A DNA stretch of 63,856 nucleotides, counting the filler, from Reclinomonas americana ATCC 50394 (lineage: Eukaryota): assembly GCA_048213135.1 (NCBI GenBank). It is 15 parts of 15 records of this genome, joined end to end, with 100 filler letters (N's around TTAATTAATTAA, not from the genome) between each part and the next. Parts side by side here need not be neighbours in the genome. Positions count along the whole stretch, not along the records: positions 34,325 to 44,432 come from AFZH01023118.1; 14 more parts are not named here. The stretch is one strand, 5' to 3'. The translations under genes and the position numbers were made by a program. The notes below the pieces were generated by a model. It was not told the DNA's origin. It made no database searches and saw nothing but the letters and a program-made list of their open reading frames with translations. Positions 27,476 to 58,200 of the stretch are shown in pieces (positions within the stretch are counted from its first letter, which is position 1; each line of letters opens with the position of its first letter).

Positions 27476-30400
27476 ACATGTCCTCGTCTTCCTCCTCTTC
27501 ATCCTCCTCGTCCTCTTCATCCTCCTCATCCTCTTCATCCTCCTCCTCCTCTTTCATCACCACCTCCATCTTCATCGGCTTCTCCTTCACCCTCCCGTCA
27601 CCCAACCCTGCATGATCCGCATGAGTCACGCAGAGGGTGTCAACAGCAAGTTACTCCTGTGTTCATCACTCACCGGCACGTACAATCTCCGCCTGCGAAA
27701 GACGACCGTCTCGAAGCAGGGCGGCCAGCAGGCCTGGATAGTCGCGAAAAGCCTGCATTGCCTGCGTGACAAACGGCAGAAGAATGTTTGGCTTCCCATT
27801 CTTCCGCAACCTTGCAGACTCCTGTCACTCGAGACACGAGAGAAAGTGAGTCAAGCATCGTAGATGCAGAGCACAACCACAGTCCACGTGCCTCAGAGTA
27901 TCCACTTTCATGCACCACAACCAGTGGTCTTCAGATTGCATCCACCAGCGCAGCTCCTCGAAGACCGCTCGTCTATTTATCGCACGTATGCGGCCGCGGC
28001 AAGTAAGTAACAATAATCTCGTCGTGTGAAACAGCAGAGCAAACAATGAGAACTCACATCAATGTAATTACTGATGCTCTCAAGCACGCTTTTCGTTGAC
28101 CTGGGCATTTTGCTGCGAGTATGACTGGCAGTCCATCCAACGCACTCAGCGAATGCAGCCATAACTGCGGATGATGGGCGGCCCGGTCCCTTTGACGGCA
28201 TGTCGCATTCGTCGCAGGCAAGTTGGAAGAGAATATACTGATGATGGCGCACTGTGGATGCCACCACCACCGATGCCATCAGACCAAATGCCTTCACCAG
28301 TAATCTCTTCTTGTTGCAACCCTGCTCTGGCAAGAGATGGGTTGGCAAGGGTGAAGCGTTGATGGCAGCATTTTCGACGACAGTGTCGACGACAGGGACA
28401 GCAGCGCGCAACGAGCAGTCTTGCCAGGATCAGTTGGTCGTTGCTGCTCAGTCTGGCAGAGCCCTTGCTGTCCTGTGGATGCGAACCATAATCGTAAGGA
28501 GAAACACCGCGCGCGGTCTCGATCAGCACACAAAACTTGCGTCGAGCACACCTTGGCTTCTGCAGCGTCGCGACACACACTGTCACTGATGCTGCTGGTG
28601 CCCTTCTTCTCGTCTTTGCTCACCATTTTCGCGCCGGTCAGAGCTATTACTTACTTGTGAATGCCAGCAGACTGTGCCGTTCGGGAACACAGACTGCCAA
28701 ACCTCGTACACTGCACCACTCGACTGCGCGTGCGATCTCGCGCTCGGACAAACAACCGTCTCGAAGCAGAGTGGCCAGCAGGCCAGGGCAGTTGTGGAAA
28801 GCATGCGTGGCCTGAGCAACGAACGACATACGGGAATTCTGCTTGTACTGCTTAATACTGGGCAGCAGTGATGATTCCTGACACGCAGAGAGTATGAGTA
28901 CACAAACCCAACCACCACGATGACAAGACAACTTAGCTACCTCAGAATGGCCACGACTGTTGACAACAATCGGTGGTCTCTCAACAGCATCGGCCAGAGC
29001 GGCGCCGCGCAATTCACTCGCCTGCAACATTTCACAGGCATTGATGTTGGCTCTATTTGCAGTCGCAAGTGATCGGCACGACACGTGCTCACCTCGATAA
29101 AGTTGCTCATGCTTTGGAGCACCCCTTCAACCGACTTCGGAGTCTCACTGCGCGCCTTCTTGGCAACCTGGCTAAGACTTGAGCCGAATGCATCCATGAC
29201 TGCAAACGACGGACAGCGGGAACCCGATAAAGGAATGCCACACTCTTTGCATGCGAGTTCAAAGAGAAATCGCTGATGATGCAAGACTGTGGATCCCATC
29301 ACAATAGGCGTCATGATTCCAAATGCCTTCGCCAATACTTTTTTGTTGCAGCACTGCACGTGTATGAGTTGTGAGCACACGACTAGCCAGCAGACCTCAA
29401 CGGAAAACGAAAGAGTCAACCCACGAAACAAGCAGTCTTGCCAACACTTGCCGCTCACCCGCGCTCAGCGTCGCATGCGCACTCTCGCCCCGCTGTGATC
29501 GACCTCCATGAGATGCAGGCACAGCACGCAAAAACCCACTAGCGACGGGAATACCTTGTTCCTTCTGCACGCGGTGCTCACGTCGTCATACGCAGTCTTC
29601 GCCACTCCTCTGCCAACCTTCTTTGCCGCCGTCAGAGCTACGGATACATCTCACTTGTGAGCCCACATGCAGAGCGCACGAAATGCAAACTACGACGTCA
29701 AACCTCGTTCTGAGCACCACTTGACAGCGCGCGCGATCTCCGTCTCAGAGAAAACCCCCTCACGAATCAGCGTTGCCTGCAATCCAGGACATTCTCGCAT
29801 TGCCCGCGAGGCTTGCGCGACAAACAAAGCCAGTGAATTTCTGCACCTATTCGCATCCGGCACCACTGACCATGACGCCTGTTACGCACGCCGTGGAAGA
29901 AACATGTGACTCGTCCACAGCAGCATGCAAACGTGTGTGGCTGCAACATACCTCCGAGTGACCACGTTCGTCCACCACAATCAGCGGCCTCTCAATGGCA
30001 TCCACCAGATCATCACCGCGCAGTTCACTCCTCTGCAATGTTGCACATGCGAGTAGTGTTAGCTCACGTCCCAGACGCGTGTGCGACGGCAGCACACATG
30101 GATGCTCACCTCGATATACTTGCTCATGCTCTTGAGCACGCCTTCCACCGACTTGGGTGTGTCGCTGCGTGCACTACTGGCAATATTGCCAAGACTTCGT
30201 CCAAATGAGTTCACAACTGCGGTAGACGGGCTGCCTGTTCCCGAGGAAGGGATGCCACACTCCTTGCATGCGAGTTCACAAAGAGTGCGCTGATGGTAAA
30301 CAACTGTGGTCCCTATGACAGTCGGCGCCATGGAGTATCTTCGTCTTGTTGCACCGCTGTTCGCACACACACACGCACGCATCAGCATATGCGACTGGCA

Positions 30401-32060
30401 AGCAAACGGCATGAATCAGCTCTGAGGAGATGCACTGCACATGCCCACGCAACATGCATTTTGTCAAGCAATAAACGCTCGACATTGCTCAAGACGGTAC
30501 TCGACACCAGCTGAAAATACTGACCATGTGTCACCGTCAACACATTCGCCACATCCAACACATACAATCATGGACACCACGCACAGTTCTCGGCGTTGAT
30601 TTCTCGACATCCACACAAACTGCCGAAAACTGTAAACGCACTTGTCAGTGCCTGACTGAGCGCAGTCACTCCCTTCAACTATGTCTCCTCCGTACCTTGC
30701 CATCATTTCCTTCGCGAGAATCCTCTTGGTCTTCATCCCCATCCGCTTCCGTCTTCGCGTCTGTCTTCGCACTGATAGTCACGTCTACGACACAGGTCAA
30801 CAGGAATGCAAGCACACACAGCAGCTGTCGGAGACTGCAGACCTTTCGACTGGCACCATGTGACGGCGCGCGATATCTCGGCCTCAGAGAGGTGGTTGTC
30901 TCGAAGCAGAGCAGCCATGAGACCATCGCATTCGCGTATCGCATCCACGGCCTGCCTGACAAACGGCAGAAGGTGGTCTACCTGGTTCTTCAGTTGCGGT
31001 GGCAATTTTCTCCACGATTCCTGTCACAAGCAAATCCGGGTGAGCGAACAAAGATCAGTCGTCGCAGAAGATCATACAGAAAAACTCACCTGCGAATATC
31101 CGCGCTCATCCACCACAATCAGTGGTCTCTGAACAGCATCAACCAGAGCCGCGCCACTGAGTTGACTCATCTGCAGATTGCAATCATCTGCTCGTTGCTT
31201 CAAATGTCATGGTCGCTCACAGCCATACGCTTCCTTACCTCGATGAAGTTGCCCAGTCTCCGCAGTACACCCTCGACTGACTTGGGCGTTCTTTTGCGCG
31301 AATGACCAACAGTCCACCGAAGCTTATTGTCAAACGCACACATGACTGCAGATGAATTGCGACCCGGCTCCGACAACGGAATTCCGCAGTCGTCACAGGC
31401 CACCTCGAAGAGAACACTCAAATGGTGGAAGACAGAAGATTGCTGCACAACGGGTGCCATCAGGCCGAATGTCTTCACCAGGACCCTCGTCCAGTTGCAT
31501 CGCTGTGAGTGACAAATGAAAGATGATGAGCGAAATGAGGAGAAGGAGGAGTGAGAAGGATGACAGCGAGCATGCACACGCAACAAGCAGCTTGTTCAGC
31601 AACAGGTTCTCGTCTGTGCTCAACTCTTCTGGCTCTTTACCAGCTCGAGCATTGCGACTCTGTGAACCCATAACATGCATCATTGACACAAAGAACCCCA
31701 ACAATGACAATGACAGAATCCACACGTTCTTCTTTGGCGGTGCAAGCTCGTCGTCGCTGGATGCATGCACCTGCTGAGAATAAAGAATAATATGAGGTGT
31801 TACTGTGATGCACGAGCATGCCACATCGGAGCTCACCTCCAGAGAGCGCTTGCGGATCGATGTCTCAACTGAGTCATGTGCAGGCAAGTCGCCACTGTGA
31901 TCCACCACAAGCGAGTACACTCACTGTTTCCTCGCAAGTTGTTGTGCAATCATGTCAAGGGCCAGTGAGAGACATGCTCTGGGATGACACACAATCAGTG
32001 TACCTCGACAATGCCTTCCATCCCCGTGTGTTCCATGTGCTCCTGGTGAGCAGCTGAGTG
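27476..32060 (-). pseudogene. Multi-exon gene with four ~1 kb tandem copies of an unrecognised ~200-aa domain and an acidic tail; carries an in-frame stop and a frameshift
   Basis: Four homologous exon sets, e.g. (K/T)(A/T)FG.M.P.V..S.V.HH...LFE.AC..CGIP.S..G..S.AV..AF......R...PKSVEGVL..(M/L)S.(F/Y)IE at ~28060-28320, 29095-29355, 30110-30355, 31240-31500, with conserved intron positions. TGA at 27931-27933; frameshift near 30333. Confidence 0.75.
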
Positions 32061-32989: not shown

Positions 32990-33863
32990 ACAACAGAGCC
33001 GCCTGGCGACCGAGGGCCACCGAGTTGAACGTTAGTGTTCCGGTGAAGTTGACAATCCCACCCGTCTCGCCGCTCAGCGCAGTGATGGTGACATTCTGCT
33101 GTGTGATGGTGGTGTCTGCGGCATAGGTGCCCGGCAGGATGACCACCACGCGCCCAGAGGAGCCCGCAAGAGTGCATCTTTGTGCAAGAGTGGCCACCGC
33201 CGACTGCTCGCATCGACCGTTGTTGGCGTCGTTGCCGGTGGCGGCGGAGACATAGACGGCATTGTTGAACACATTGTCGAGTGCGCCTATGGTGCCCACC
33301 GAGGGAATGGAGGGAAAGGTGGCGAGAGAGAGATCGCCTCGCAGGTATTGTGCCGTGGTGCCAGTGGTGATGACATTCTGCTTGCTTGTTTGCAGAGCGG
33401 TGATGGCGGACCCTTGGCTCGCCGTTGTCGATGAAGTGTGGAGATGGCGGATCCCTGGCTCGCCGTCGTGGATTGCAGCGATGGAATCGATGCTCCCTGG
33501 GTCGTCGTTGTGGATTGAAGGGCGGAGATGGCAGAGGAGTTTCCACTCACCGTCGACTGGAGAGTTGTGATGCGTCCCTCGGCTGTGGTGACTCGGCCGG
33601 CCAGCGAAGCCTGTTGCGACGCGACTGTATCGAGGTTTGCGCCATTGGAACTCATGATCGCACCGGCTGTTAATGAGCCACCCACCGTCGCATTGCCCTG
33701 CAGCAAGAGTCTGGCCTCGCCGGTAATGTCGGATGTTGCGCGAATGGTGCTGGCGAGGAGTGGTTGGCCTGGAACATACGCACCCGACTCGTTGATGAGT
33801 TCGACTACTGCATCGTACACTCCTGGTCGATTCCATGGCACGGTGTCTTCAACGATCCGTCAT
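32990..33863 (-). pseudogene. Viral fibre/spike-like protein (coiled-coil shaft + start of right-handed beta-helix), intronless, frameshifted and 3'-truncated
   Basis: Heptad repeats RITTLQSTVSGNSSAISALQSTTTTQGASIPSLQSTTASQGSAI; phage-fibre-like KQNVITTGTTAQYLRGDLSLATF; beta-helix cap YVSAATGNDANNG..VATLAQ..VVILPGTY. Frameshifts near 33857 and 33430. Confidence 0.65.
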
Positions 33864-33920: not shown

Positions 33921-35672
33921 ATGTCGGAATCATTGATCGCCGCTGGTGTTGTCGCGGCCGCCGCCGCCGCCGTTGTCGTCGCTCTCCCTTCTCCCCCTGC
34001 AACTCCATCTCCATCCCCTCTTCCTCTCCCTTCCCCTTCCCCATCCCCTCTCCCTCTCCCTCTTCCTCCTCCAACACCGATACCGATACCACCTCCAACG
34101 CCGATGCCGACGCCCGATCCAGAGCAAGGGCGAAACCCCTTTCCGTTGATGGCCTCCGAGTACGTCATCCATCGGGAGGAGGGGCTATCCATATTCGCGA
34201 GCCTGCCTGCAGTGATCCTCGGCCNNNNNNNNNNNNNNNNNNNNNNNNNNNNNNNNNNNNNNNNNNNNTTAATTAATTAANNNNNNNNNNNNNNNNNNNN
34301 NNNNNNNNNNNNNNNNNNNNNNNNCCCCCTCGCAACTCCACTCTCCCATCCCCTCCTTCCCTCTCCCTTCCCCTTCCCCCACTCCCCTCTCCCTCTCCCT
34401 CTTCCTCCTCCAACACCGATACCGATACCACCTCCAACGCCGATGCCGACGCCCGATCCAGAGCAAGGGCGAAACCCCTTTCCGTTGATGGCCTCCGAGT
34501 ACGTCATCCATCGGGAGGAGGGGCTATCCATATTCGCGAGCCTGCCTGCAGTGATCCTCGGCCGTCGCATGAGGAACGAGAGACAAGGTGAGGTGCCAGG
34601 CATGCATGGCGATTCGCCGTCGGCGCAGATGGTGCTGGAACTCGCCTGGCAGAATACCGTACGACTACAACACACGGCTGGCGCATCAGGCGCGGTGGGA
34701 GGACATGGCAACCGTGGCCTTTTTGAAGGTGGAGATGAACGAAGCGATGCAATGCCCCTTTGTGGGGAGACCCCGTATGCTGATGTTGGCGTTCAACTGC
34801 CCGACCTCGCACTGCCAGCAGCCGACTGGCGCCACATGTGGCTGGATAGACCAACCCTGAATCCATTGTTCCGCTTTGCCGTCAACGGAGTGCTCGCCTA
34901 CAACTTTCCCAAGCCGGATGTCGACGTGAACAGCATCTACTTTCCAGCGAACGGCTGTGTGCTGTACATTATGGACCCCGCCGACTTTTCTTGTCGTCCA
35001 CACGCATTCTACCAGCCCATTGAGCCTGTGGGCCAGTGGTCGTACAAGCACTTGGGCGGTGCCAAGTATCTTCTCGTGCCTGCTCGTGGCTCCACCGATG
35101 GCCACCAGAACGGCACCATGCATGCAGTCGATGTGCTGCAGTGGAGTTCGAAGCACTTTATCTCGCGCGAGGTGCTCAACGATCTCACCTCATGGGATCC
35201 GCAGTTTGGATTCATCAAGGCGGTCACTGGCGGCAACGGCCGCTCCCTCGTTCCGCGAGCGCCATTGATGCTGCCTCTCAAGGTGTCCGCCTCTAGATCT
35301 TCTCCACCGACTGACGACATGCTCTGGGTGTGGCAGCGCGATTCCGGCATGACGCTGACCTCGGTCTACATGGATCTCGACAACTACTACCTCATCCCGT
35401 ACAATGGACATGCGATCGCCATCCCCCACCCATCCGAAACCATGAGTAACGAAGATGAGTACTTCTATTGCTCACTGTTTATTGCAGATTGTGCATGCTG
35501 TGTCGGTGTGACGCTCTCTCGAATCCCTCGTGGATGGTACCTGGCGGGCGGCGTCCTCTGCCATCGATCATCGCTGCTCACGAGTGCACAGGCAGCAGAG
35601 TGGCAACGCAACGGAGTGCTTCTCGGACCAGGGCCTCATTGTGTGGACTCGTTTGGCATTCCTTGGAATTGA
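33921..35672 (+). CDS. Intronless orphan protein (~470 aa once the redundant contig overlap is removed): hydrophobic N-terminus, Pro-rich linker, aromatic/Cys-rich globular part; probably viral
   Basis: ORF 33921 (MSESLIAAGVV..) continues into the 409-aa ORF 34443-35672 through the duplicated contig ends. No introns; divergent from the fibre gene with a 57-bp spacer. Confidence 0.7.
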
Positions 35673-35926
35673 TCCTCCTCTCCACCCTCCTCCAGCACAT
35701 CCTCCTCCTCCCCATCCTCGTCGCTCATGGGCACAAAGGTGAGATGCTCGAGCACCTCGTTGATGAGTTCCAAGACCTCGTCGAATCGCTCATCGATGAT
35801 CGCTCGGAGCTGCTCAAAGGCGGTGGTGGAGCGCGGTCGGGATGCTGGGATGCGGCAGTTTGCATCGGCGTCGGTGGCAGAGAGGTGGTCAACGTCACGG
35901 CGGCGAGTGGAAGTGAAGCGGTGCAT
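35636..35926 (-). CDS. Small intronless protein with acidic tail, unknown function (viral segment)
   Basis: 96-aa ATG ORF with amphipathic helix FEQLRAIIDERFDEVLELINEVLEHL, preceded by an AT-rich spacer (35950-35980). Confidence 0.5.
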   Translation of the reverse strand: MHRFTSTRRRDVDHLSATDADANCRIPASRPRSTTAFEQLRAIIDERFDEVLELINEVLEHLTFVPMSDEDGEEEDVLEEGGEEDQFQGMPNESTQ

Positions 35927-35979
35927 GAGATGGATGATGGATGATGGATGGATTGATTGAATAAATATTTTACACTCCG

Positions 35980-36800
35980 TTACGTTACGTCACGCTCCAC
36001 CCATTCTTCCACACGCGGGGGTGTAGCATTGTCTGCAGAGGAGATGGTGGGCTCTTGAGGCACCGCCAAGTCATCGGACGCAGCTTGCACATCCATGAGG
36101 CGGCAGAGCGAAATCATGGCCGGCACCACATCGTGCTGATCAAACTGAATGGTCATCTGCAACCGCCGCACCGCCACATCGAGGTCGGCAAAGGCTCGTC
36201 GCACCACCTCGGCCTTTTGTTGCGGCTTGAGGGCCGATTGCAATCTGGTGAGGCAGAGAGAGGACACTCATCGTCACATTCACAGTCGGTGAGGTGACAG
36301 CCAGTGAGGAGAGCGCGGTGAGTGCAGTGGTGGTGCCGAGCAACAGAATGCGACACGTGCCATCGCATGCCTTGTAGAACAACAGTTGGCGTCGCAGTGA
36401 ACGGAGGCGACTGACGGCCTCTTGAGCAGTCTCGTGCAGCGACTCGTGATATCTTTCGTTGCATTTATTCTGCGGCTCTCTTTGTTGACCATCGTTTCAG
36501 GGCGTAGAAGCGATGTCGTAGCAAGTCGCGTTCAGGCTCGGTGAGACAGATGGCGGGGTATGTCACGGCGAACTCGGCCATTAGCTGACCGAAGCGCTCT
36601 GGCATCTTTCGGATGATAGGTTTCAACCCATGGCCAACCGGTTAACCACCTATCGTCATCCATGGCCATGCGCTGGCGAGGATCATCATGCGCGGGTCGA
36701 ACTGCGACATGCCCTTGCCCAACAGGAACTCGCGGAGCCACCGGAGCCAGGCGAATGCCACTTCGTCGGTGATCAAGCAGTTGCGTTGTCGACTTCCATC
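35980..36800 (-). pseudogene. One or two decayed intronless ORFs (viral segment)
   Basis: Protein-like text switches frame several times: LITDEVAFAWLRWLREFLLGKG / IIRKMPERFGQLMAEFAVTYPAICLTEPERDLLRHRFYALK / CLTRLQSALKPQQKAEVVRRAFADLD. Confidence 0.45.
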
Positions 36801-36855
36801 TTGTTCTCGGTTGCGTTGGTCTGGGAGGATGATGTATACAGCGCCATACATAATC

Positions 36856-37068
36856 TCAGCGCCCCTTTCTCGCCTTGATCTCGTCGGCTCTCGCCTTGAC
36901 ACGAGCGTGCTCCGCTGTGCCGCGCTTCGGGATGGGATTGATATCGATGCCACTGGAGCCCTTTTTCAAGAATTCGAAGCCCAGGTCTCGCAATGCGGCA
37001 ATCCACGGCGAGTTCTCCACGGAGTGCTTCTTTCTCGGCTGTCTCTTCTTCCTTGTCGAGTTGTCCAT
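36856..37068 (-). CDS. Small basic protein, putative viral DNA-binding/core protein
   Basis: 70-aa Lys/Arg-rich ORF with SPWIAALRD..IPKRGTAEHARVK, immediately downstream of the capsid gene. Confidence 0.6.
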   Translation of the reverse strand: MDNSTRKKRQPRKKHSVENSPWIAALRDLGFEFLKKGSSGIDINPIPKRGTAEHARVKARADEIKARKGR

Positions 37069-37276
37069 GTCGTCTGTATCGGGGGCTATATATGTCGCTG
37101 TCGGCGGAGGAGGGGAATATAATATTAATAGGCGCGGAAGAAGTTTCTTCGCTCGAGGGGTTCAATGCAGAAGTTTCTTCGCTCGAGGGTTGCGAGGGCA
37201 ACGAGGGGTGCAACACAAAGGGAATGTTCATTGTCTTGGTGGTTGGGTGATGGAAGAGAGTAGGATAGAAAAATAA

Positions 37277-38335
37277 CTTGTTCACCATCTTGTTGAATGT
37301 GACGCGACCGGGAGTGGAGGGCGTGAACACCATGGCATTCTGCGAGGTCCACTGGAGGCGAAGAACGCTCGTGGACCCGAGCGACGAGGGGAAACTGACC
37401 TGCAGCGTCGGCGAGGTGGAGCCGGCCGAGCCAAAGTTAAAGGCCGATGCATCCTCGCCCTCCTCCTCGTTCTGACTGTTGCGGCCAAACACAGCCCCAT
37501 ACACGGAAATGTCGGAGATGTTGCGGATGCCGGCGTCGGGGAACACGGTCCAGCGCACATAGTCGCCGTCAATGGGAGCATTGGAGAAGATGTTGTTGCC
37601 GTTGCTGGTGAACTGGTACTGGGTGACGGCAAGGCGAGTGGTTGGCTGCACATTGAACGGGGTGGTGATAGACGCCTGTGCCACCGTGTCAAAGAGCACG
37701 TAGGCGACCAGGCCTCGCGCAGAGTTGAGATCGACATTGTAGGAGGCCAAACCCGATTGGAGTGTCGTATCCTGCTCATAGAGATCAAGGTAGAGCTGGG
37801 CCACTTGCTGACCGCTGCCCACCCTCGCGACGAAGGCCTCATCCGCACGAGGCTCCGTGGTCGGCGAATCGTAAAAGGCGGCCTGGAGGTACGCCGACGT
37901 AACGGTGGCCGCGGCATTGGCCGGTGAGCCTTCCACACAGAGGGAGAGGGGTTGCAAGGTGACGGTGATGATAATGTCGCTGCTCGTCAACAGGTAAGGC
38001 AACGGCGATGTGTCGAGCTCGAGGAAGGTCGGCAGATGGATCACCCACTTCTTGGCGGCGGCCGCGAATCCCTGTCGGGCAGAGAGAGTGGCGTTGAGAC
38101 CTGTGGCGGCCTCCAGCGCGATGAGCTTGGAGATGGAGGCATTGCGCTCGTTCCTCAGCGAGATGGACTCGCCACCAAACAGCTGCACCTGCTGCGAGCC
38201 CACCTGGATCGACACGGACTGGATGAAGCGCGAAACATCGGGCACCCAAGCCGGGAGGTTGGAGCCGGTGTAGGTGATGGCCGAGGTGTTGATGACAAGG
38301 TCGAGGTCGGCGAGCCACTGACCAGAGCGCAACAG
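37277..38335 (-). CDS. Double-jelly-roll major capsid protein (Bamfordvirae-type: Polinton-like virus/virophage/NCLDV-related), N-terminus missing, reading frame runs on to 36773
   Basis: Motifs in the same order as DJR MCPs: LLRSGQWLADLDLVI, FIQSVSIQVGSQQV, WVIHLPTF..PLPYLLTSSDIIITVTL, SAYLQAAFYD, YNVDLNSARGLVAYVLF, QYQFTSNGNNIF, ISVYGAVFG..AFNFGS..LQVSF..LRLQWTSQNAM. Intronless and beta-rich. Confidence 0.8.
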
Positions 38336-39309
38336 GGTGGTTGCGGTGGTGGTGGTACCGCCGCCGTCGTGGCGCTGGTCGGCGTCAGCGAGGTTGCGAC
38401 TGGCGGCAATGCCGGTGTAATGGCCGGCGGCAACGTAGGCGACGTAAGCAGCAGACCAGCCGTGTGCGGCAGCTTCCCGCGATCGCGACCACGTGGAGGT
38501 GGTGAGGTTGGTGTGGCGGTGACGGGCGATGAAAACAGCGGCGTTGCAATGTCTGCCGGCACTGCTCCACCAGCAGCACCATTGGTGTCACTATGCGGAC
38601 GAGGAGCAGCCGGCTCAGCAGCCGGATCAGCTGGCCGATGCCGCTTGCGCGGTGGAGATTGCCGGAGGGACCGATGTTGGAGCCGACACTGACGGCGGCG
38701 GCAGCGAGCCCAGCAGCGACATGGACGGCAGCGACGGCAGCGGGGGGATTAGAGAGGCAGCTGCGGCGTCCACCGTCGACGCGTCAAGGCCGTGGAGTCC
38801 GAATGTGGCGCCGACATGGCCGACACGGCACGCGGAGGTAACAGTAGTGGTCGCGATCGATGCTTCTCCGTGGCGAGCATTCGCACCTGCTTGTAGGGCG
38901 CCAGGCGATGCAACACCGGGTCACGCAGTTGATGCTGCTGGTCATGAAATGGTGGGGCGCGAGGGCTGTGTGCGTGCGGTAGATTTAAATGAGCACAAGT
39001 GGCGCGGAGCACACACACGTATACGAAAAGAGAGGAGACAAACCGTCAGCAGCTTTGACACGTCGCTGGGTCCCGATGAACGACGCGTCGACACCGATCC
39101 ACCGGCGAATGATGGAGGCGGCGGCACTTGTGGCGCTCCAAACATGGGCGAGAAGGATGCGCCCAGTGCTGAGGCGGCGGACGCGTGTGGCAAGTCTGCT
39201 CGATCAACGGCATTCATCATCAGAACGTCGGGGAGCATTGTCGAGGAGGCCGACGATGAGCGCGTGTGCGGGTGGTGCGCACCACCCACAAACGACAGAG
39301 GCGGCAGAA

Positions 39310-39780
39310 ACCCGACAGGCCCGTGACCGTGCACTGCGACACGGTGCTCGTCGTCGACAGCGTGCACATGCTGGGCGACGTGGTCGAAGGCACAAATGGT
39401 GCGGTAGTCGGCCGCCGACTGCAGCTGCAGAATCGCCATACCAGTGTTAACGTCAACGTTGGCCGGTGCCACCGCCGACGATCGCGAGACCACGGTTACC
39501 ACGAGTGCCCGACTCAGCGGCAGCACGGCGGAGGCCGACACCTGGGGTCTTGCGGCGTACGCGTGATGCTGCCGATGGTGAGGGAGAGGTTGGAGGCTCG
39601 GCGCCGCAGTACCAAAAGCACCACCCAGCGTGCCCGCAATGCTGATGTGCGCCGAGATCGTGTACGTACGCAAACGCCGGCTTCAGGCGATTGATAGTGC
39701 AACGCCACTCGCCATTGGTGTCGGCCGTCGCGGCCAGGAGTCGGTGAGCGCTCTCCAATCGGCATATAACACAGCAACAA
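39310..39780 (-). pseudogene. Frameshifted fragment of a fibronectin-type-III-like protein
   Basis: Across frames: TADTNGEWRCTINRLKPA / RTYTISAHISI and MCTLSTTSTVSQCTVTGLSG, resembling the FN3 C.V.GL.PG..Y signature. Confidence 0.4.
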
Positions 39781-40108
39781 CAAATGACAAGTGGACCACC
39801 AGCACACGCGACTGCGCACGGTCGTCATTCTGTCGCTCTTGCGAGCGTGTGCGTGCGTGTGAACAATCGCGGGTGAGATCGTCAACGACGTCGACGTCGA
39901 TCAGACCTTGATGTCCTGTGACCCGATCTGGACCCGCCCCGCCCGCCCGCCGACTCTCGGTCGACTCACGCCATACATCTTCAGCGAGATCAGGTAACTG
40001 AGGGCCACACGTTCGTTGTTCTTCTCAGCCATTCTGAGCTCAGTGATAAAGCCTCCTCACAGGCAGACAGACAGATCTGTGTTCGCACATTCTTGATCAC
40101 CGTCCGCA

Positions 40109-41402
40109 ATGTCCGTCAGCGGCGAGCCTGGAGGAAGTTCGTCAACAGTTGAAAAGAGTAACGTTCTTGCCTGGCGCAACTACATTGCCGACAGCATCGG
40201 CAATCTTGCCGACATCAACGACCTATTCGTCGACCGAATGCAAGTCGGTTTGGAGCAACTCAGCAGCTTCGGCATCGTGGCGTCTCTACTCTTTGGGTTC
40301 TCTGTCGCCTGGATTGAGGTGCGTGTGTGTACACTTTCTCGCAGAGTGAAATGTGTGTGCGCTGGTTTACCGCCATGTCGTGCAAATCCAAATCACAGAC
40401 ACCTTCCGACCAGGGGTCGTCTTCGAGCGGCACTGCTCCGAGTCAGCCCGGTGATGCTCCTTCGCGAGGGAGATCAGCACTCTCTGCCATCATCCTGGCC
40501 ATATGGTTGGTGTTTTTGATGCTAATCATTCGCAACTCGAAGTACTTGGCGCGACTCAAGTCAGCGGTGAGAATCATCTATGTCAACTGCATACGCTGTC
40601 AATCTTGCACTCAAAGCAAACGCACCTGTAGCTGGGATTTGATTCGGAGTGCCGTGTCAAGTCATTGGAGCGGGATATCAAGTGGCTGCGCGAAACCCGT
40701 CACCTGCTGTTGCTGGAGGACGCATGCTATTCCCTTGAGAACCTCAGAAGCCTTCGGCTTGAGGTCACTGACGAGGCGCGGCGGATCGCAGCGTGGCTCG
40801 GGTGGACATTGCGATATCTGATGGTTCTGTTGGGAGTTCAGGTCTGCGCAATGGAGTGAGTTGCTGCTGGTATTGTTCCCTCACAGCTGCTTGACACACA
40901 GCTGGTGCTCAGGCTCCTGTTGGTCGGAAATGATGGCTACGAGGCAACAACCTTTATTGTTGCTGCTGCAGCCGCGATTTGGGCATGGCCAGTGCTCTTT
41001 CTTCTCTTTTCTGGAACATGGACGCCCGCGACTCCAGCAGATCGTCGTCCTGGACCATCTCTTGCTTCCCCACTGACATCAGGAAGACAGATGAATGACC
41101 GCACAGCCACTTTCGTCGCACGTGCTGGGCGGGAGCGTCCATGGCGTCGTTGCGACTTAATCTCCGTCGTCGCTGCTCATGTCCTGGGAACCGTGTTTCC
41201 GTTCCGTGGCGACGTTGACACTGCGGAGGTGCTCGACAACGACTTCGGCGCTTGCTGGGCTCGGTTCCGGGTGTGGAGAATGCATTTCGATGTGCTTTGT
41301 GATGCTGCCAAGCGCGAGGCAGACGAAGTGGGTCGCTTGACGCGCGATCCGTGGCCAGATGCAGTACTTGAACAAGAACAAGACTCAGAGTCTGAAGATT
41401 AA
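40109..41402 (+). CDS. Intact four-exon, ~4-TM membrane protein, possibly Orai-like
   Basis: Exons ~40109-40318, 40399-40566, 40632-40841, 40902-41402 join in phase 0 through GT..AG introns into one open frame. TM1 is EQLSSFGIVASLLFGFSVAWIE. Confidence 0.75.
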
Positions 41403-41599
41403 AATCGAGTGTGGGAGTTGCTCGTGAGAGTTTTCCAAGTATTTACGCTATATTATTTACAAGTGATTGGCAGTGGTCCGTGCCCTGCGTCTGCATTCGT
41501 GTCAAGCAACTTGGAAGTTCACGCCCTGCCACTCCGGATGCGAGGTTCTGCGCCAAGGTGAGTGGACGTCCGCGACCTCGCACTAATGGTCATTTCGGT

Positions 41600-42600
41600 G
41601 TACTGCGCAAAGCAACCGTTAAGAAAAGGGCTATCGATACTCCATCAGAGATCTGCACATACCGTTTCTTTGCGCTGGTGCGCGCGACGGCTCTCTTCGT
41701 GTAGCTTGGGCTGTCGAGGCGACATTGCCGGGATGGGAGCAGTCGCAGCAGAGGGCGCTGATGGTGTCGGTTCTCGTCGAGCTCGAGGGTGCGTAGACAA
41801 CTTCTCAGTGAGTCGGGGGGTGGGCCCGCGCGCAGCTGGCACACGCGCAGTGGCACCCGGCGGCGGAAAATCGCCGTACGCCTCGTCGCGAATCGGTGTC
41901 GGAGTGGGTCGAGGTGGAGGCGTCGGCCGAGGACGCGGAGGTTTGGGCCTCTTCGGTGGATCCTCCGGTGGGGACGCAGTTCCGGATACTCGTCTCTGTT
42001 TCGCCAACTCGGTAACCCGAGAGACCAGATCCTCCTTGATGCCGGTGACACGCTCACCATTGTGCTTGAGAATCGACTTGAGTTGAGGGACCTTTAGTTC
42101 GTTGAGCTTGTAGCATGCGCAGAGAAATGAAAAACAGAGCGACAATGCATACGGGAGTGCTCGTGCATCAGCGTACCATGTTGGCTCGTATCAGCAAGTC
42201 GTAGTCAATGTCTGGAACATCGACGAAACCTCCCTGGATCTCGCGAACGTGGTCATAAGCCGGCTCGAGGGTGGAGGCGATGAACTTCTCCACACGAAGC
42301 ACCAACTCTGGTTTGCTGCCAGAGCATTTAGCGCCATGACTGCGGAGAAATCCTCGCAGGTCATTCACCCCCACATCCCCGAGCTGCGAGTCATTCGACA
42401 ACCCACGATCAGCTGCAGGCGGCGGCACTTTTGCAAGTCAAACCAATCGTGATTTCACGGAAACACACCGTGCGAGACCTTGCGACGCGAAGCCAATCGA
42501 TTGCGGCGGCCGCAGGTGCTGCATGCTGGTGTAGGCGTGCTCTCAACTCATCGACGGCGTTCGTGTCTGCATCGGCATCAGTCCCGGGCCCGCCGCGCAA
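41600..42600 (-). CDS. Protein with two SAP DNA-binding motifs and a Pro-rich tail (ends uncertain)
   Basis: LGDVGVNDLRGFLRSHGAKCSGSKPELVLRV and LNELKVPQLKSILKHNGERVTGIKEDLVSRV both match the SAP consensus. Confidence 0.75.
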
Positions 42601-43637
42601 GACAGCACGAGAAGCCTTGGCTTGTAAACGCGCTGAGTGCGAGAGAGAATGCCATTAAATAAGCGCAAAAGCAATTGCAAGCAAAACAAGAAGAACTCTC
42701 TTCCTCCGCACAGTGCACCGTACGGCTTTTCCTTGGCTGCTGCATGCGGAGGGGGTGCGCGCATGGGCGACACCGCGCCATCACGCACAGATGCAGCACC
42801 TTGCAATTGTCGCCTGGCAGCCACGTCGAACACCTCGAGATTCGAGACGAAATGAACTGCGCCTCCGTGCCGGAGAGCGCCACTGCGACCGTAGAGCGAC
42901 GGGTCGTGCAAGGTCTCCATTTGCCAGTGGGTGAGGAGTGTGGCGGGAATTCGTCGATCTGTTGGTCTCCGAATTCACTTTGGTCTTCTCTTCTCTGCCT
43001 TTCTCAAACATCCAGCGTGAAACACGCAGAACTTGTAAGTGTCCCTCTGCCGTCGATGCACGCTGATAGTATTCTGATGCTCTCTTCTCTGAGTCTCACT
43101 CCTCATGATCAATGCACTCCTGCTCTCACACTCCACGAGCGGGCACCACAAGCGTCTGCGCGCTTGACCCGTGTGTGTACCCTGTCCGTGATCACACGGG
43201 ATAGAACAGTTCTTGTCGAAGATCGTCTGAAGCACAGCGCTTGCAAGCTTGTGTTGCCGTGCACTTCACATGCATCCTTTCACGAAGAATGACGCGTGCT
43301 TTCTCACACGCTAGCGCTGTGGTGCTGCAGGTGTCGACGTCGAGGAGGTTTCCATTCGACTCGCGGCTATGTCAATCCCTGCAATTGCTGACTTTGGCCA
43401 GGTTTGCTTATTCGAAAAAAACTCTTGATAGACTGCTGAACAATGTATCGGCATGACCTCCAGATACCAGTTAGACCTCAGCCTGCAGCGGATGGCGACC
43501 GCCGTGCTGATGCAGCCGAGGCTCACCGTCTAGACGATAGCGATCACGATTCGAATGCCGTCGAAAGTCACCCTGCAGAGGACGGCGAAAGTGACATAGG
43601 GTCGGATGCCTCCGGATCCGGCGGTCACTTGCAACCA

Positions 43638-43770
43638 CCTCAAGTGGACGGTGGTGGCGGTCCGAATGCCGCCGGTGGTCAGCCTCAAGTGGATGGTGGT
43701 GGCGGTCCGAATGCCGCCGGTGGTCAGCCTCAAGTGGATGGTGGTGGCGGTATCGGTCCGAATGCCGCTC
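43638..43770 (+). repeat. 45-bp coding minisatellite (~3 copies; PQVDGGGGPNAAGGQ) in an unidentified ORF (43443-43871)
   Basis: cctcaagtgga(c/t)ggtggtggcggtccgaatgccgccggtggtcag repeated. Confidence 0.85.
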
Positions 43771-44703
43771 CGAATCCAGCGCTGCTGTGCCTCGTTTATC
43801 GCGGGGGTGAGCATCCGGTCAGTGCCTCTCGTAATTATGTAGTGTGCCTGAAGCAATCAGCACGTTATTGACGCTGCTGTATCTCCATGCACACAACGGC
43901 CACGATCATGAAGCGTCGGATACGTGCGAATACCCTTGACGGATTCCTTTCTCGCGCGCGATTGCGTCTATGCACCAGCCAAAAATGCAACTCGTGTATC
44001 ACCCTCATCTATAGGGCTAGCCCCGGGCCTGCCAACGTCGGTGGTCTCCATCCAGTACCACATGCATGGATCCAGCTCCGAGATACGGAGGTTTCGTTGT
44101 TTGTCGGCAGCATCGTGCAATCTAGAATTTTGAATGACCAACTCACGAGTCTCGTGCTCTTTCGACGGTGTATATAACAGGACTGGACAGACTTGACTCA
44201 GCTGCGCGTGGCACCAGACGTCGACTGGGTTGACATTCGAGCGACCAACCTTTGCGAGGCCTGCTGTTGCTATCTATGCATCGAGTCGTCGTGGAACTCA
44301 ATCCTGTGCTGCTGGTGGTGCTTTTGCTAGCAGACTGCGACCATAGTTGCATGCACCCTCATGATTACGAGATCCCTGTAAACGGAGACTTGTAGGCCAT
44401 ACTCGTCTCTCTCTCTCTCTCTCTCTCTCTCTNNNNNNNNNNNNNNNNNNNNNNNNNNNNNNNNNNNNNNNNNNNNTTAATTAATTAANNNNNNNNNNNN
44501 NNNNNNNNNNNNNNNNNNNNNNNNNNNNNNNNGTACGTACGTACGTCGTCGTCGTCGTCGGTTCGGTTCGGTTCGTTCGTTCGTACGTACGTACGACGTA
44601 CGTACGTACGTACGTACGTACGTACGTACGTACGTACCGTACCGTACCTACGTACGTACGTACGTACGTACGTACGTACGTACGTACGTACGTACGTACG
44701 TAC

Positions 44704-44769
<66 letters not shown>

Positions 44770-45336
44770 GACCCTGGGAGAGGCGGGGACTTTAGCATGC
44801 TACCATGCTGCTACGAGGGCGTTAGTTGGCGCTACCAAGCGCTAACTCGCTGCTAGTTGAAGTGAATTGCATGTTCTAGTTTGCTACGACGCGGTAGCAG
44901 GTGAAGTGCACTGCTACGACGACGTTAGCGGGTGACTGCGTCATGAAATTTCCCACCTCTCATTCGCTCACACAGCAGAGTTCACAGCAGTGCTTGGACG
45001 GCGTGAGGGAGTGGGTGGTGTGTGCTGCGCCGCCACCGATGCGGCGCACGGCGACAGGCTGGCGGTGCGTTGGCTGCTGATTGGGTCGATTGTGTACATG
45101 TGTGCGACACCTTGGCTGACCGATGTACATGTGCACCTGTCACACACAGCTCATCGACCTGCGCTGCAGCTGCTAGTTGGTGGCTGGCGCGTGGACGGCG
45201 TGAGGGAGTGGGTGGTGTGTGCTGCGCCGCCACCGATGCGTGGGTTGCTAGCGTCCCAATCCATCGCACTGACGGCGGCAGACAACGACGCGCTGGCTGA
45301 CAAAGTGCGGCACTACATGCGTAACGAAGTGCGGTT

Positions 45337-45796
45337 TTATTGCTGTGCGCTTCCACCGACGTGCCGTGTCGCTGCTCAGAGTTGCGTCGCGTGTGGTGGA
45401 CGTGCAAGTGAGGGAGGTGATGTGTACTGAATGGGGAATGAGCAGCTCGTCGAAATGATGCCCAGGCAGCCGGAGCACGCAGCACTGCTGCGCGACATTC
45501 GCTACTGGCTGGAGGACGTGAGCTCGGCGTTTAGTGTGGGCCCGCGAGAACCGGCCGTGTCGCGCAACCTGGCCGTCGTGAACGCCTTCCTGGCCGAGTG
45601 CGTTCCCGCGGAGCAAATGCCGGACGCCGACACCCTGCAGCGCATCGTGCGTCACTCGCAAGACTACCTCGCCAGCCAACCCAATCTGCAGATCGACGAC
45701 CGGCAACGAGTCACCAACATCATTGCGCTAGCCTCGGCCAAACTGCGCCGCATCGCCGACGCAGAACGTGAAGCACGCATGCAGATCGCTCAGTGA
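45337..45796 (+). pseudogene. 5'-truncated duplicate of the TMEM260-like 3' end
   Basis: Encodes the same 121-aa ORF as 25513-25878, but upstream sequence is unrelated to the TMEM260-like gene. Confidence 0.8.
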
Positions 45797-46018
45797 AATG
45801 AAAAAGCAAAGCAAAAGAGCAAGTGACATCAGCATTGCGAAGCATCGTCGATGCAGAATGCCCAAAGAAAACAGCGCCAGCAAATGAGCGAAAGCTGCGC
45901 CGCATCGCCGATGCAGAACGTGAAGCATGCATGCAGTGCGCCCAGTGAAAGAATAACAGCCAGCAAAGAGAGCACAAGACACCAGGCATTGCATTTTCAA
46001 ACAACACCACCACCGGCC

Positions 46019-46412
46019 TCACGCCGACAACAGCCGATACGCATCGTAGAGAATGTAGTCGGTCTGCCCGTCCTTGGCCAACAAGAACTGCTCGGAAAAC
46101 ACCCGACTCTTGTTCTCTGCAAACTCCACCGAGCCGCTGACCAGCACCAGCTTGGCCACCTCTCCACCCACAAACACCGGCTGGCAGTCGAACGCCGTAA
46201 TCACGTGCTTGGAGAAGGGCAGCTGTTGCTGGAAGAAGGCGTCAATGTTGCGGCATCCCGTGTATGGTGTGCCATCCCACACCAGTGTGGAGTTGTCGCG
46301 GTATAGTTGTGCCACATCCTGGAGAGGGAAAGGGTGAGAGGGGAGGAAGAGGAGAAGGCGGAGGGAGAAGAGAGAGAAAGAGAGAGAGGGGTGTGTGTGC
46401 GTGCGTGCGTGC

Positions 46413-46484
<72 letters not shown>

Positions 46485-46650
46485 AACGTGTCTCTTGTGG
46501 TCGAGCCATCGATAGAAGATGTTCTGCACAAACTCATCGGCCGCTGCAACACGCAGACAGTGAGTGTGAAGGCGAATGAAGGGAAGGGAGAGGAGAGGAG
46601 ACATGGGCACCTCTGATGGTCTCCAGCACCGCTGCGCTGAGGTCTGACAT
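46019..46650 (-). CDS. NXT1: NTF2-related export protein NXT1-like (copy 2, complete, 3 exons)
   Basis: MSDLSAAVLETIR|AADEFVQNIFYRWLDHKRH|DVAQLYRDNSTLVWDG..YDAYRLLSA*. Confidence 0.88.
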
Positions 46651-46819
46651 CGTGAAGAACAAGCGAAGATCAGTCGATTGTGTGGTTTGATGAAACTCTC
46701 TTACAATGACTTCGCGCGTNNNNNNNNNNNNNNNNNNNNNNNNNNNNNNNNNNNNNNNNNNNNTTAATTAATTAANNNNNNNNNNNNNNNNNNNNNNNNN
46801 NNNNNNNNNNNNNNNNNNN

Positions 46820-47021
46820 GCTGGGCATGATCTGGGGGATTGTGTTGATTCTTCTCGGCATCCTCACCGCCGTCTTCTTTGGCCTGCAAGTCAGGTTCTC
46901 CGGCGCTCTCATGGCTCCCTTTTGCTGTGTGGTGCTGTATGCGGTGATTGTGCTGCTGAACCTCAAGTACGTTCTCAAGCCACTAGTGCCGGGGCCGGAT
47001 GCCGGGATCTTCATGCAATGA
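46820..47021 (+). CDS. 3' exon of small membrane protein, possibly TspO-like (copy 2)
   Basis: Same translation as 26933-27127. Confidence 0.45.
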
Positions 47022-47479
47022 TGGTGATGAGGAGAAGAAAAAGGAAAATAAAGGAGCTTGTTTGTTGTAGCTCTTGTTGGCTTTGAGGGTGGATGTAGAC
47101 ATTTTCACAGCAGCGTAAATGATCATGCTTCATCATGGCAGCATCAACACCGAGGAGGAGCCGCAGCGAGAGACAATGAGAAGGGTCACGATATCGCGAT
47201 CCAGCTGAATACCACAACCCCAGATGGCCATCGAGACTGCATTCCAACCGCGCCCGCTGAGATGGTGTCGAGTGCAGGGGCAGGAGTATCCACAGACCCA
47301 GCAAATGCAGCACTTCTTTCTGCTCGTCCACATTGATCCACAACAAGACGAGTCACACGCACAATCTCGTGATGGGTACTCCCTCCCCACAGCTGCATTT
47401 GCTCCACGCAGCCATGCTCAAAAAAAAAGCGCAACCCGCCTTCACTCGCTACCTCTCTCTCTACTCCTCGCCCTCATCT

Positions 47480-55291: not shown

Positions 55292-58200
55292 AGCCACCGA
55301 CCAGTCCGCCCAGCCGAAGTGATGCGCAGTTGGTTGCCTCCAGAAATGTTGAACCAGGCACCGTGTGGTCCGCCCACAATCGAAAACGTGTACGACTGGC
55401 CAGTGACCACGGGCGACGGCACGCTCAGCGTGCCCACCACAACCTGAGCAACCGACGGTGACGTATATGTTCCCGGAGTCAGGTTGATAAACACTGGTGC
55501 GGGCGGCATAACCACCGTCACAAGCACGGTGCCAGTGGCACTCAGAACACCACCTGTGCCCTGTGCTCCGCCAGAGTTGCCATCGCTGAAAGTCCACCGC
55601 ATCAGTACCGTCGACGCAGGTGCAGCACTGGGGTTTGCGTACGCAATCTGCTGCATCGCTGCATTCACCAGCGTGTTTGTCGCGCTGCCGTTGAACGTGA
55701 GCACAACCGTGCCGCCACTGTTGGTCGTGACTGTGCCAATGACCGTGCCGCCAACGGTACACGTGCCGCCCTCAGTTAGTGCTCCAAGAGTGCCCACGGC
55801 GGAAAACACGTCCTGCACACTGGCACCGCCATCGCGCGTCACCGTGAATGTCGCACCAGAAAAGTTGTTGAGAAGGCTCAGTTCGGCGTCGTAGATTGTG
55901 ACGCTGCTGACGAGCGCAATGCCGCTGCCGCCTGCATAGTACGTGGCAGAAGAGCTGGCCGACGCGGCGACCGGTGCGTCGTTGATGCTGGTCACCGTCA
56001 GCGAGGCAGTCTGGGTCGCTGTGCTGAAGGCCGACAGCCCACCGTTCGAGCTCGCGTCTGCCTGCGACCCTGCTGCACCTCCGTCAGTCTGGTCCCAGGC
56101 ACGGAAAGTCACTCCCGCTGTGCCACCAATGACAGTGTCTGGCAAGAACCGAACCCTGTCAGTGTCTCGCAACAACAGCGCCGCCGTGTTGCTCAGGCCG
56201 CCAGGCATGTTGCTCCATGAGCTGCCGTTGTCCAGCGAGAACTGCCATACGCCACTGCCTGCGACACTGACACCCGTCACGGCAACGCCCTTTGCCGACG
56301 CGCGCGACGCGTCTGCATCTGTCACACGTCCACTGATGACAGCCGATACCAAGTCGCCCGAGCTGTTCGTCTGATCCTCGGTGATGGCACTCAGTGCATT
56401 CGCTCCAGTCAGTGCTGGAGCGGTGTTCGCGCTCGCGGTAATGGACCACATTTTGGAAGCGATCAACGAGCTGCGGGCGGTGCTTCCAGTGGGACCGTAG
56501 AACACGCCAGAGGCCCCCAGCGTGACGGCTGACTTGACGTTCTGAGCGGCCCAACCGACCAGAATGGCATTGAAGTTGGGCACACTTAGACCGCTGCTGT
56601 CAAACATGCTGCTCATCGAGGTCACTTGGGTCACATTCCACCCGCCAATGTTCCGATTGAATGCCGTCGCCCCCTTGAACATGTTTGCCATGTTCGTGAC
56701 GGCAACAGTGTTCCATCCGCTGATATCACCATTGAACGCCGTCGCCCCCTGGAACATGGCCGACATATCGGTAACGGCAGCAGTGATCCATCCGCCAACG
56801 CTCTGGTTGAACGCCGTCGCGCCGTAGAACATGCTCGACATGTGGGTGACGGCAGCAGTGCTCCATCCGCCAATGTTCTGGTTGAACGCCGTCGCCCCGT
56901 AGAACATGCTTGACATGTTGGTGACTGCAGCAGTGTTCCATCCGCCAATATTCTGGTTGAACGCCGTCGCCGAGTAGAACATGGTCAACATGTTGGTGAC
57001 GGCAGCGGTGTTCCATCCGCTAATGTCACCGTTGAACGCCGTCGCCACCTTGAACATGCTCGCCATGTTGGTGACNNNNNNNNNNNNNNNNNNNNNNNNN
57101 NNNNNNNNNNNNNNNNNNNTTAATTAATTAANNNNNNNNNNNNNNNNNNNNNNNNNNNNNNNNNNNNNNNNNNNNGGCAGCAGTGTTCCACCCGCTAATG
57201 TCACCGTTGAATGCCGTCGCTCCCTGGAACATGGTCGACATATCGGTAACGGCAGCGGTGTTCCATCCAACAATGTTCTGGTTGAAAGCCGTCGCCCCGT
57301 AGAGCATGCTCGCCATGCTGGTGACAGCAGCGGTGTTCCATCCGCTAATGTTCTGGTTGAACGCCGTTGCGCCACGGAACATGGCCGACATATCGGTAAC
57401 GGCAGCAGTGTTCCATCCGCCAATGTTTCCGTTGAATGACGTTGCCCCGTAGAACATGCTCGACATGGTGGTGACGGCAGCAGTGCTCCACCCGGTAATG
57501 TTCTGATTGAATGCCGTCGCCCCATTAAACATGCTTACCATGCTCGTGACGGCAGCCGTGTTCCATCCGCCAATGTTCTGGCTGAACGCCGCCGCCCCAT
57601 AGAACATGTTCGTCATGGTGGTGACGGCAGCAGTATTCCATCCGCCAATGTTCTGGTTGAACACCGTCGCCAACTTGAACATGCTCGACATGGTGGTGAC
57701 GGCAGCAGTATTCCACCCGCTAATGTCACCGTTAAAAGCCGTCGCCCCGTTGAACATGTACGACATGTTGGTGACGGCAGCAGTGTTCCATCCACTACAG
57801 TTCTGGTTGAACGACGTCGCCCCGTTGAACATGTACGACATGTTGGTGACTGCAGCAGTGCTCCACCCGCTAATGTCACCGTTGAAAGCTGTCGCCCCGC
57901 TGAACATGAACGACATGTTATTGACGGCAGCAGTGTTCCATCCACTAATGTTCTGATTGAACGCCGTCGCCCCGTTGAACATGTACGACATGTTGGTGAC
58001 GGCAGCGGTGTTCCACCCGCCAATGTTCTCGTTGAACGCCAACGCCCCGTTGAACATGCTCGACATGTTGGTGACAGCAGCAGTGTTCCACCCGCTAATG
58101 TTCTGGTTGAACGCCGTTGCGCCACGGAACATGGCCGACATATCGGTAACGGCAGCAGTGTTCCATCCGCCAATGTTACCGTTGAATGACGTTGCCCCGT

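Follow-up and report, generated by a model that had tools for sequence, protein, structure and literature searches.

Background

Double-jelly-roll (DJR) major capsid proteins (MCPs) consist of two tandem jelly rolls and, in the virion, build up an icosahedral shell from trimeric, pseudo-hexagonal capsomers. More than 35,000 endogenous MCP matches, including those of polinton-like viruses (PLVs), of virophages and of Mavericks, are reported from 462 protist genomes in the available part of one survey; 17% of them lie on contigs that carry an MCP alone, many matches are on short contigs, and many appear degraded (Bellas et al. 2023, PMC10120064). A recent preprint, in the portion accessible to us, describes Zora, Zephyr, VC40 and Alpensee as PLV-sized groups with capsid modules like those of nucleocytoplasmic large DNA viruses (NCLDVs), and notes for the Zephyr group that neither an endogenous example nor a host is known (Bellas & Sommaruga 2026 preprint, 10.64898/2026.06.19.733378). 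Here we analyze a 63,856-nt stretch of DNA from the protist Reclinomonas americana ATCC 50394 (assembly GCA_048213135.1), referred to below as the window, which contains a frame with a DJR MCP core at 37280..38359 on the minus strand. We estimate at roughly 70% the probability that this capsid gene is an isolated remnant of an endogenous PLV with an NCLDV-type MCP.

The locus resembles the endogenous PLV MCP genes of Bellas et al. (2023, PMC10120064), as presented in the available part of that study, in having a DJR MCP of about 400 aa encoded within eukaryotic DNA. Confirmation followed the same route, namely metagenomic relatives combined with AlphaFold modeling and Foldseek comparison to the PDB, and many of the published matches are likewise lone, apparently defective capsid genes on short contigs. 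Unlike a complete PLV, it was found without a minor capsid protein, A32-like ATPase, integrase, polymerase, primase-helicase or terminal inverted repeats. Six short peptide strings were absent from one supplementary spreadsheet of the survey.

Mriyaviruses and the Zora, Zephyr, VC40 and Alpensee groups, according to the accessible portion of the preprint (10.64898/2026.06.19.733378), are elements of 15-45 kb with NCLDV-related MCPs. Similarly, the relatives of the predicted protein are encoded on contigs of 1.3-37 kb (Logan, ENA, JGI/IMG or NCBI metagenomes), and some of them are detectable with an NCLDV MCP model. Pfam detected in the window none of the marker genes named there for these groups (Mriya48, HUH endonuclease, VLTF2/3 and A32-like ATPase).

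Sequence relatives of the capsid frame

To identify relatives, the protein encoded by the capsid frame was compared by phmmer with 1,835,955,588 representative proteins. The search returned 19 relatives at E <= 1e-3, nine of them at E <= 1e-10 and six at E <= 1e-30; in the best match (E 5.4e-41, 32% identity), residues 81-434 of the query align with residues 47-399 of a 401-aa protein. A chance open reading frame (ORF) was ruled out by this E-value together with the predicted fold. The relatives are 356-431 aa long, and all are unnamed or annotated as "hypothetical protein". All six sequence motifs by which the original prediction had recognized a DJR MCP can be read in the translation, in the order given there.

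The maximum-likelihood tree groups the predicted protein with its eight closest relatives in a clade with 100/99 support. Its branch length is 0.72, against 0.45-0.89 among the clade relatives, and its placement as the earliest branch of the clade has a support of only 80/81. Of 16 columns that are invariant in the eight closest clusters, 14 are kept, and each relative scores alike when left out in turn. These comparisons place the protein in a clade of MCPs of about 400 aa that is so far known only from unnamed metagenome contigs.

Two alignments were used for profile searches: A1, which comprises 20 sequences, and A2, which is limited to the closest subgroup. The A1 profile matched 17 PDB entries at E <= 10, and all 17 are DJR capsid or scaffold proteins. 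They include the MCP of Emiliania huxleyi virus 201 (EhV-201; E 3e-13), three capsid proteins of Paramecium bursaria chlorella virus 1 (PBCV-1), namely MCPv1 (E 4.9e-11), MCPv4 (E 5.6e-8) and Vp54 (E 2.3e-5), and poxvirus D13 (E about 1.7e-4). When 22 relatives were scanned singly, Pfam Capsid_N was found at E <= 0.1 in seven. The curated Capsid_N cut-off was passed by four (P0013, P0014, P0015 and P0019), all of which lie outside the closest subgroup and are matched directly by the predicted protein with E-values of 4.7e-7 to 5.4e-4.

Other searches added little. A word-indexed homologue search returned nothing for the predicted protein, and only P0015 when A1 served as the query. No true relative was recovered from scans of viral contigs with the predicted protein, P0009, P0011, P0004, P0013, P0019 and P0016, of metagenome contigs with P0009 and P0011, or of genome contigs with P0013. 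One candidate locus, L001 (27 residues, E 7e-4), was dropped, as it was matched by neither family hidden Markov model (HMM).

Predicted structure

An AlphaFold2 (AF2) model of the capsid frame protein was built with alignment A1; residues are numbered along the translation of 37277..38587 (minus strand). The model reached a mean predicted local distance difference test (pLDDT) score of 74.4 and a predicted template modeling score of 0.75. Values of pLDDT are mostly 80-95 over residues 80-437, with a loop at residues 369-379 below 50, and they are below 50 throughout residues 1-76 except for residue 67. The ordered part folds into a pair of beta-sandwiches, one at about residues 80-240 and the other at about 260-435. 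Foldseek returned 218 PDB matches at E <= 1e-3, with PBCV-1 at the top (5.8e-19) and capsid chains of Singapore grouper iridovirus (SGIV) and EhV-201 also present; in BFVD, the named top matches are NCLDV MCPs. Among the matches listed, the Foldseek probability for MCPs is 1.00. The check proposed in the original prediction, AlphaFold modeling followed by Foldseek, gave, for the monomer, two tandem jelly rolls whose leading structural matches are viral capsids.

Pairwise superposition with VIA-align ranked the PBCV-1 MCP first (Z 34.1; root-mean-square deviation (rmsd) 2.5 A over 353 residues, model residues 55-435), followed by the MCPs of Faustovirus (Z 31.9), SGIV (Z 30.1) and EhV-201 (Z 29.6). 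African swine fever virus p72 gave Z 27.8, poxvirus D13 about 25 (poxvirus scaffolds 23-26), PRD1 P3 22, the MCP of Sulfolobus turreted icosahedral virus 19.8 and adenovirus hexon about 14. NCLDV MCPs (PBCV-1 Vp54 and its variants, EhV-201, SGIV and Faustovirus; Z 29.6-34.1) are the best structural matches, as they are the best matches of the PDB profile search, and their superpositions span both jelly rolls, with an rmsd of 2.5-4.5 A over 332-366 residues. The predicted protein differs from them in sequence, with an identity of 11-15%, and is shorter, at about 400 aa, where their aligned chains have 413-622. It also differs in its setting, the window holding no other NCLDV gene.

The virophage MCPs of Sputnik (Z 18.5) and mavirus (Z 18.0) share the DJR architecture, but their fit is poorer (range 17.6-18.5, against 26-34 for NCLDV capsid proteins) and their chains are longer, at 503-515 residues. 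No virophage chain appeared in the A1 profile search of the PDB, and no search gave a virophage sequence match. A virophage-type capsid, one of the affinities considered at first, was ruled out on these Z values, being the poorest structural fit among those proposed. The capsid is thus of the NCLDV-like or polinton-like, not the virophage-like, type; a fold nearest to that of NCLDVs and phycodnaviruses is what would be expected of PLVs and their NCLDV-like relatives. Alignment and model together identify the product of the frame as a DJR MCP of the Bamfordvirae kind.

Boundaries and codon signature of the capsid frame

The frame is open from stop to stop over 36773..38587 on the minus strand (604 codons). 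An HMM of the 11 closest relatives, searched against the window, matched residues 77-436 of the translation (E 1e-87), covering profile positions 43-404 of 404; this was the only frame matched in the whole window, and in one copy. The matched core, 37280..38359, comprises 360 codons without an internal stop or frameshift. The interval 37277-38335 had been singled out by the original prediction, whose coordinates are nearly exact for the homologous core; the frame is on the minus strand, though, and is not a bounded ORF.

At the upstream end, profile positions 1-42 found no match in any frame of the window, and the family N-terminus is absent from this copy or unrecognizable. The 76 in-frame codons preceding the core (38360..38587, minus strand; GC content at the third codon position (GC3) 0.75) contain no ATG and are bounded by TGA and TAG immediately upstream (38588-38593), with more stops farther out. 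These codons may represent a diverged N-terminal arm of the capsid protein. The only ATG-started ORF in the frame is 36773..37333 (186 codons), which means that no in-frame methionine occurs until close to the C-terminus of the capsid-like part. No ATG-bearing upstream exon was identified with the window sequence and the family profile. Nothing in the window suggested an alternative genetic code that would read through the upstream TAG and TGA, although no dedicated test of this was made.

At the downstream end, residue 436 coincides with the exact C-terminal end of the eight closest relatives, all of which have a stop codon in A1 where this copy has AAG (37277..37279, minus strand). Translation would continue beyond the end of the profile match through a tail of 167 codons to a stop at 36773-36775 (36773..37276, minus strand). 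The tail has no relatives and holds a short tandem duplication. The core has a GC content of 0.55/0.49/0.80 at codon positions 1/2/3 and the tail (36776-37279) one of 0.55/0.49/0.54, and from the latter GC3 the tail looks non-coding. The GC3 of the core is close to that of cellular genes elsewhere in the window (0.63-0.79). In the assembly, the capsid copy is not an intact, bounded gene, since a start codon is missing and the family stop lost.

Contig setting

The window consists of 15 contigs of 1.6-12.5 kb joined at 14 sites (3486-62255) by artificial 100-nt linkers. All linkers are identical (N44-TTAATTAATTAA-N44) and introduce stops into each of the six frames; that contigs on either side of a linker are neighbors can be trusted no further than the contig joining itself. 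The capsid gene lies on a contig of 10,108 nt (34325..44432), with linkers outside it at 34225-34324 and 44433-44532. The end of the preceding contig (32574-34224), at 33993-34224, matches the first ~240 nt of the capsid contig (34325-34563) at 97%, which indicates that the two are truly adjacent.

Other contigs of the window carry eukaryotic genes split into pieces, namely those for a kinesin motor, an ion-transport protein, a protein kinase (three ORFs) and S6PP (two frames), as well as an EF-hand, an NTF2 domain and large arrays of DUF285. The contig of the capsid gene itself has a single recognizable cellular-type feature, an exon-like SAP-domain ORF (42171..42437, minus strand; Pfam SAP E 5e-8, 32.8 bits, cut-off 23.9), which lacks an ATG and lies 3.8 kb upstream of the core. 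The capsid frame had been predicted to share its contig with intron-containing host-type genes at 40.1-42.6 kb. This interval does belong to 34325-44432, but the SAP-domain ORF is all that is recognizable there, the remaining ORFs having no Pfam match. Tetranucleotide similarity to the pooled host contigs is r 0.79 for 34325-39700 and 0.88 for the rest of the contig, with a host range of 0.77-0.94; on this measure the capsid flank does not stand apart from the host contigs. The contig ends in a (CT)n microsatellite of a type seen at other contig ends.

Search for viral partner genes and termini

Three Pfam scans were performed around the capsid gene: 37 ORFs of at least 110 aa at 27-47 kb; 47 ORFs of 50-109 aa at 39.6-44.4 kb; and, out of 56 ORFs of 45-109 aa at 32.6-39.7 kb, the 49 that remain when the seven overlapping the capsid gene are set aside. 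Across these 37 + 96 ORFs, no ATPase (A32/FtsK-type), integrase, polymerase, protease or capsid family was detected, nor were rve or tyrosine recombinase, pPolB or primase-helicase. Copies of a packaging ATPase that are very divergent or unassembled are possible. Between 32574 and 44432, the search for terminal inverted repeats gave, apart from the linker palindrome, no more than three pairs, all short (22-31 nt) and imperfect (71-77% complementary), and none of them convincing.

Two long frames adjoin the capsid gene. The first is an orphan ORF at 34443..35669 (plus strand; 409 aa from the ATG, 463 codons from stop to stop), 1.1 kb from the capsid frame. It has a proline-rich N-terminus. As a candidate minor capsid protein it had no Pfam, PDB or word-search match; its best Atlas score (0.81) is at chance level, and a single-sequence AF2 model (pLDDT 31.7) was unusable.

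The second, from which the orphan ORF diverges, is a fibre-like frame at 33003..33859 (minus strand). It is frameshifted and truncated, and consists of two overlapping frames that switch at about 33430-33450. Serine/threonine-rich repeats (LQSTT.SQGSAIS-type units) lead into an apparent beta-helix start, after which the sequence degenerates. The frame has no Pfam match, and in the PDB it found only unrelated proteins at E >= 0.13. Its nearest Atlas clusters are viral tail-fibre-like, with scores of 0.81-0.87 that are below the 0.9 level for counting, and DUF1565 occurs in two of the eight clusters listed (48% and 93% of members). As a lead only, this frame may be a second decayed viral gene.

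Origin of the capsid gene

What the window holds is a lone capsid gene, for which no second viral hallmark and no terminal repeats were found, and not a complete integrated virus genome. An endogenous virus of the Bamfordvirae type had been proposed, and of that proposal a DJR MCP among eukaryotic genes has stood. Under the reading that we favor, a virus-derived MCP gene would now sit in eukaryotic DNA as the leftover of an endogenous element. Its N-terminal part and start codon would have been lost or have become unrecognizable, and replacement of its stop codon would let the frame run into non-coding sequence. Genes for packaging, integration and replication would no longer be recognizable beside it. 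Capsid protein is most likely not made from the gene as assembled. The good state of the core suggests that insertion or inactivation was recent.

Several observations weigh against this reading. At the level of sequence, the predicted protein on its own matched no Pfam family at E <= 10, including Capsid_N and Capsid_NCLDV, and gave only one chance match (E 1.8) when PHROGs and, by phmmer, the PDB were searched; the A2 profile matched no capsid in the PDB. Membership in the capsid family at this level thus comes through intermediates and more distant members. The same Pfam result bears out the expectation that the protein would lack the canonical NCLDV sequence signature. The core bears no trace of decay, with 360 stop-free codons, 14 of 16 invariant columns and an ordinary branch length. 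Long neutral decay would not be expected to remove both start and stop by point mutation next to a clean core. The sensitivity of Pfam for PLV proteins, those of the minor capsid included, is poor, which makes the lack of detected partners weak evidence, and the orphan ORF and the fibre-like frame remain unexplained neighbors. Finally, the assembly is fragmented, the linkage of the capsid gene to host DNA comes from the assembly and not from reads, and many apparent defects in endogenous viral genes are described as assembly artefacts in the available part of Bellas et al. (2023, PMC10120064).

Many of these points would also be expected of an intact, potentially active integrated PLV, in which the missing start and stop would be assembly or consensus errors, or the start would lie in an unrecognized upstream exon, and whose partner genes would be too divergent for Pfam or placed on contigs not assembled alongside. 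We regard this as the strongest competitor, albeit an unlikely one. The clean core with its invariant residues, normal branch length and GC3 of 0.80 fits it well, and so do the two unexplained long frames next to the capsid gene, one of them fibre-like, and the fragmented assembly. In the accessible part of the same survey (PMC10120064), such defects often vanish on polishing, and lone capsid genes correspond to larger insertions that were poorly assembled. Yet two separate defects would have to be accounted for, one at each end of the gene, and profile positions 1-42 occur in no frame. The fibre-like frame is itself frameshifted and truncated, neither an ATPase nor an integrase nor a polymerase was detected in 20 kb of sequence, and terminal inverted repeats were not found either. 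The SAP-domain ORF 3.8 kb upstream of the core leaves little room for an element on that side.

A remnant of an endogenous PLV also accounts better for the locus than exaptation, in which the capsid gene would have been captured and kept by the host within a cellular transcript that gains its start by splicing. This we consider improbable. A core that looks constrained while viral partners go undetected, its host-like GC3 and the presence of introns in the host genome are in keeping with it. The read-through tail, however, has no coding signature, no ATG-bearing upstream exon was identified, and the clean core is equally explained by a recent insertion. Least credible of all is a contaminant or mis-scaffolded contig from a free virus or another organism: small contigs chained by artificial linkers, a linkage taken from the assembly and the low-end tetranucleotide correlation of 34325-39700 would allow it, but the unbroken 10.1-kb contig of the capsid gene also bears the SAP-domain ORF and has a (CT)n end like other contigs, the rest of that contig has an r typical of host contigs, GC and GC3 match the other contigs of the window, and a gene without start and stop is not expected in a replicating virus.

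Other features of the window

At 44533-44770 and at many contig ends, the window has long microsatellites of the types (ACGT)n, (CT)n, (GT)n and (GA)n, which probably explain the assembly breaks there. A direct repeat of ~2 kb (25419-27393 and 45337-47312, 92-97% identity), each copy of which is interrupted by a linker at the corresponding point, brackets ~18 kb that include the capsid gene, and its second copy carries a cellular NTF2-domain frame. These repeats could be a segmental duplication, serially placed haplotypes or a recombination footprint. On the capsid contig itself, 43482-43772 (plus strand) contains five 45-nt tandem units of 62-100% identity; "PQVDGGGGPNAAGGQ" is encoded by three of these units, inside a 142-aa ORF.

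Elsewhere in the window, 27660-31600 comprises four tandem units of ~1.0-1.1 kb that are mutually 60-74% identical. Each unit has a short minus-strand ORF of related sequence without a Pfam match, and together the units may form a small family of tandem genes. The minus strand at 55292-59222 and 62256-63856 encodes repeat proteins of very large size with DUF285 (PF03382; E 1.6e-213), with seven matched stretches in one frame and an internal 75-nt periodicity. The DUF285 regions share a duplicated segment of 1.6 kb whose copies are 95% identical (55294-56892 versus 62258-63856).

Significance

Endogenous viral capsid genes are already known to be common in protists, and the copy described here is one more example. 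Tens of thousands of such genes are documented, so that one further lone copy, of modest interest, leaves the overall picture unchanged. Still, from capsid genes that have become endogenous one can read which protists are infected by which small DNA viruses. For most PLV lineages, metagenomes are the only source and a host is lacking; the R. americana copy ties a divergent MCP clade with an NCLDV-like fold to a particular eukaryotic genome.

More speculatively, and with considerable doubt, this may be the first cell-linked copy of the clade of NCLDV-like MCPs of about 400 aa, or else the clean core may mark a capsid gene kept by the host. If the former holds, a host lineage would be named for one small "giant-virus-like" PLV group. 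The combination of lost ends with an untouched core could help to date endogenization or to test the domestication of capsid genes.

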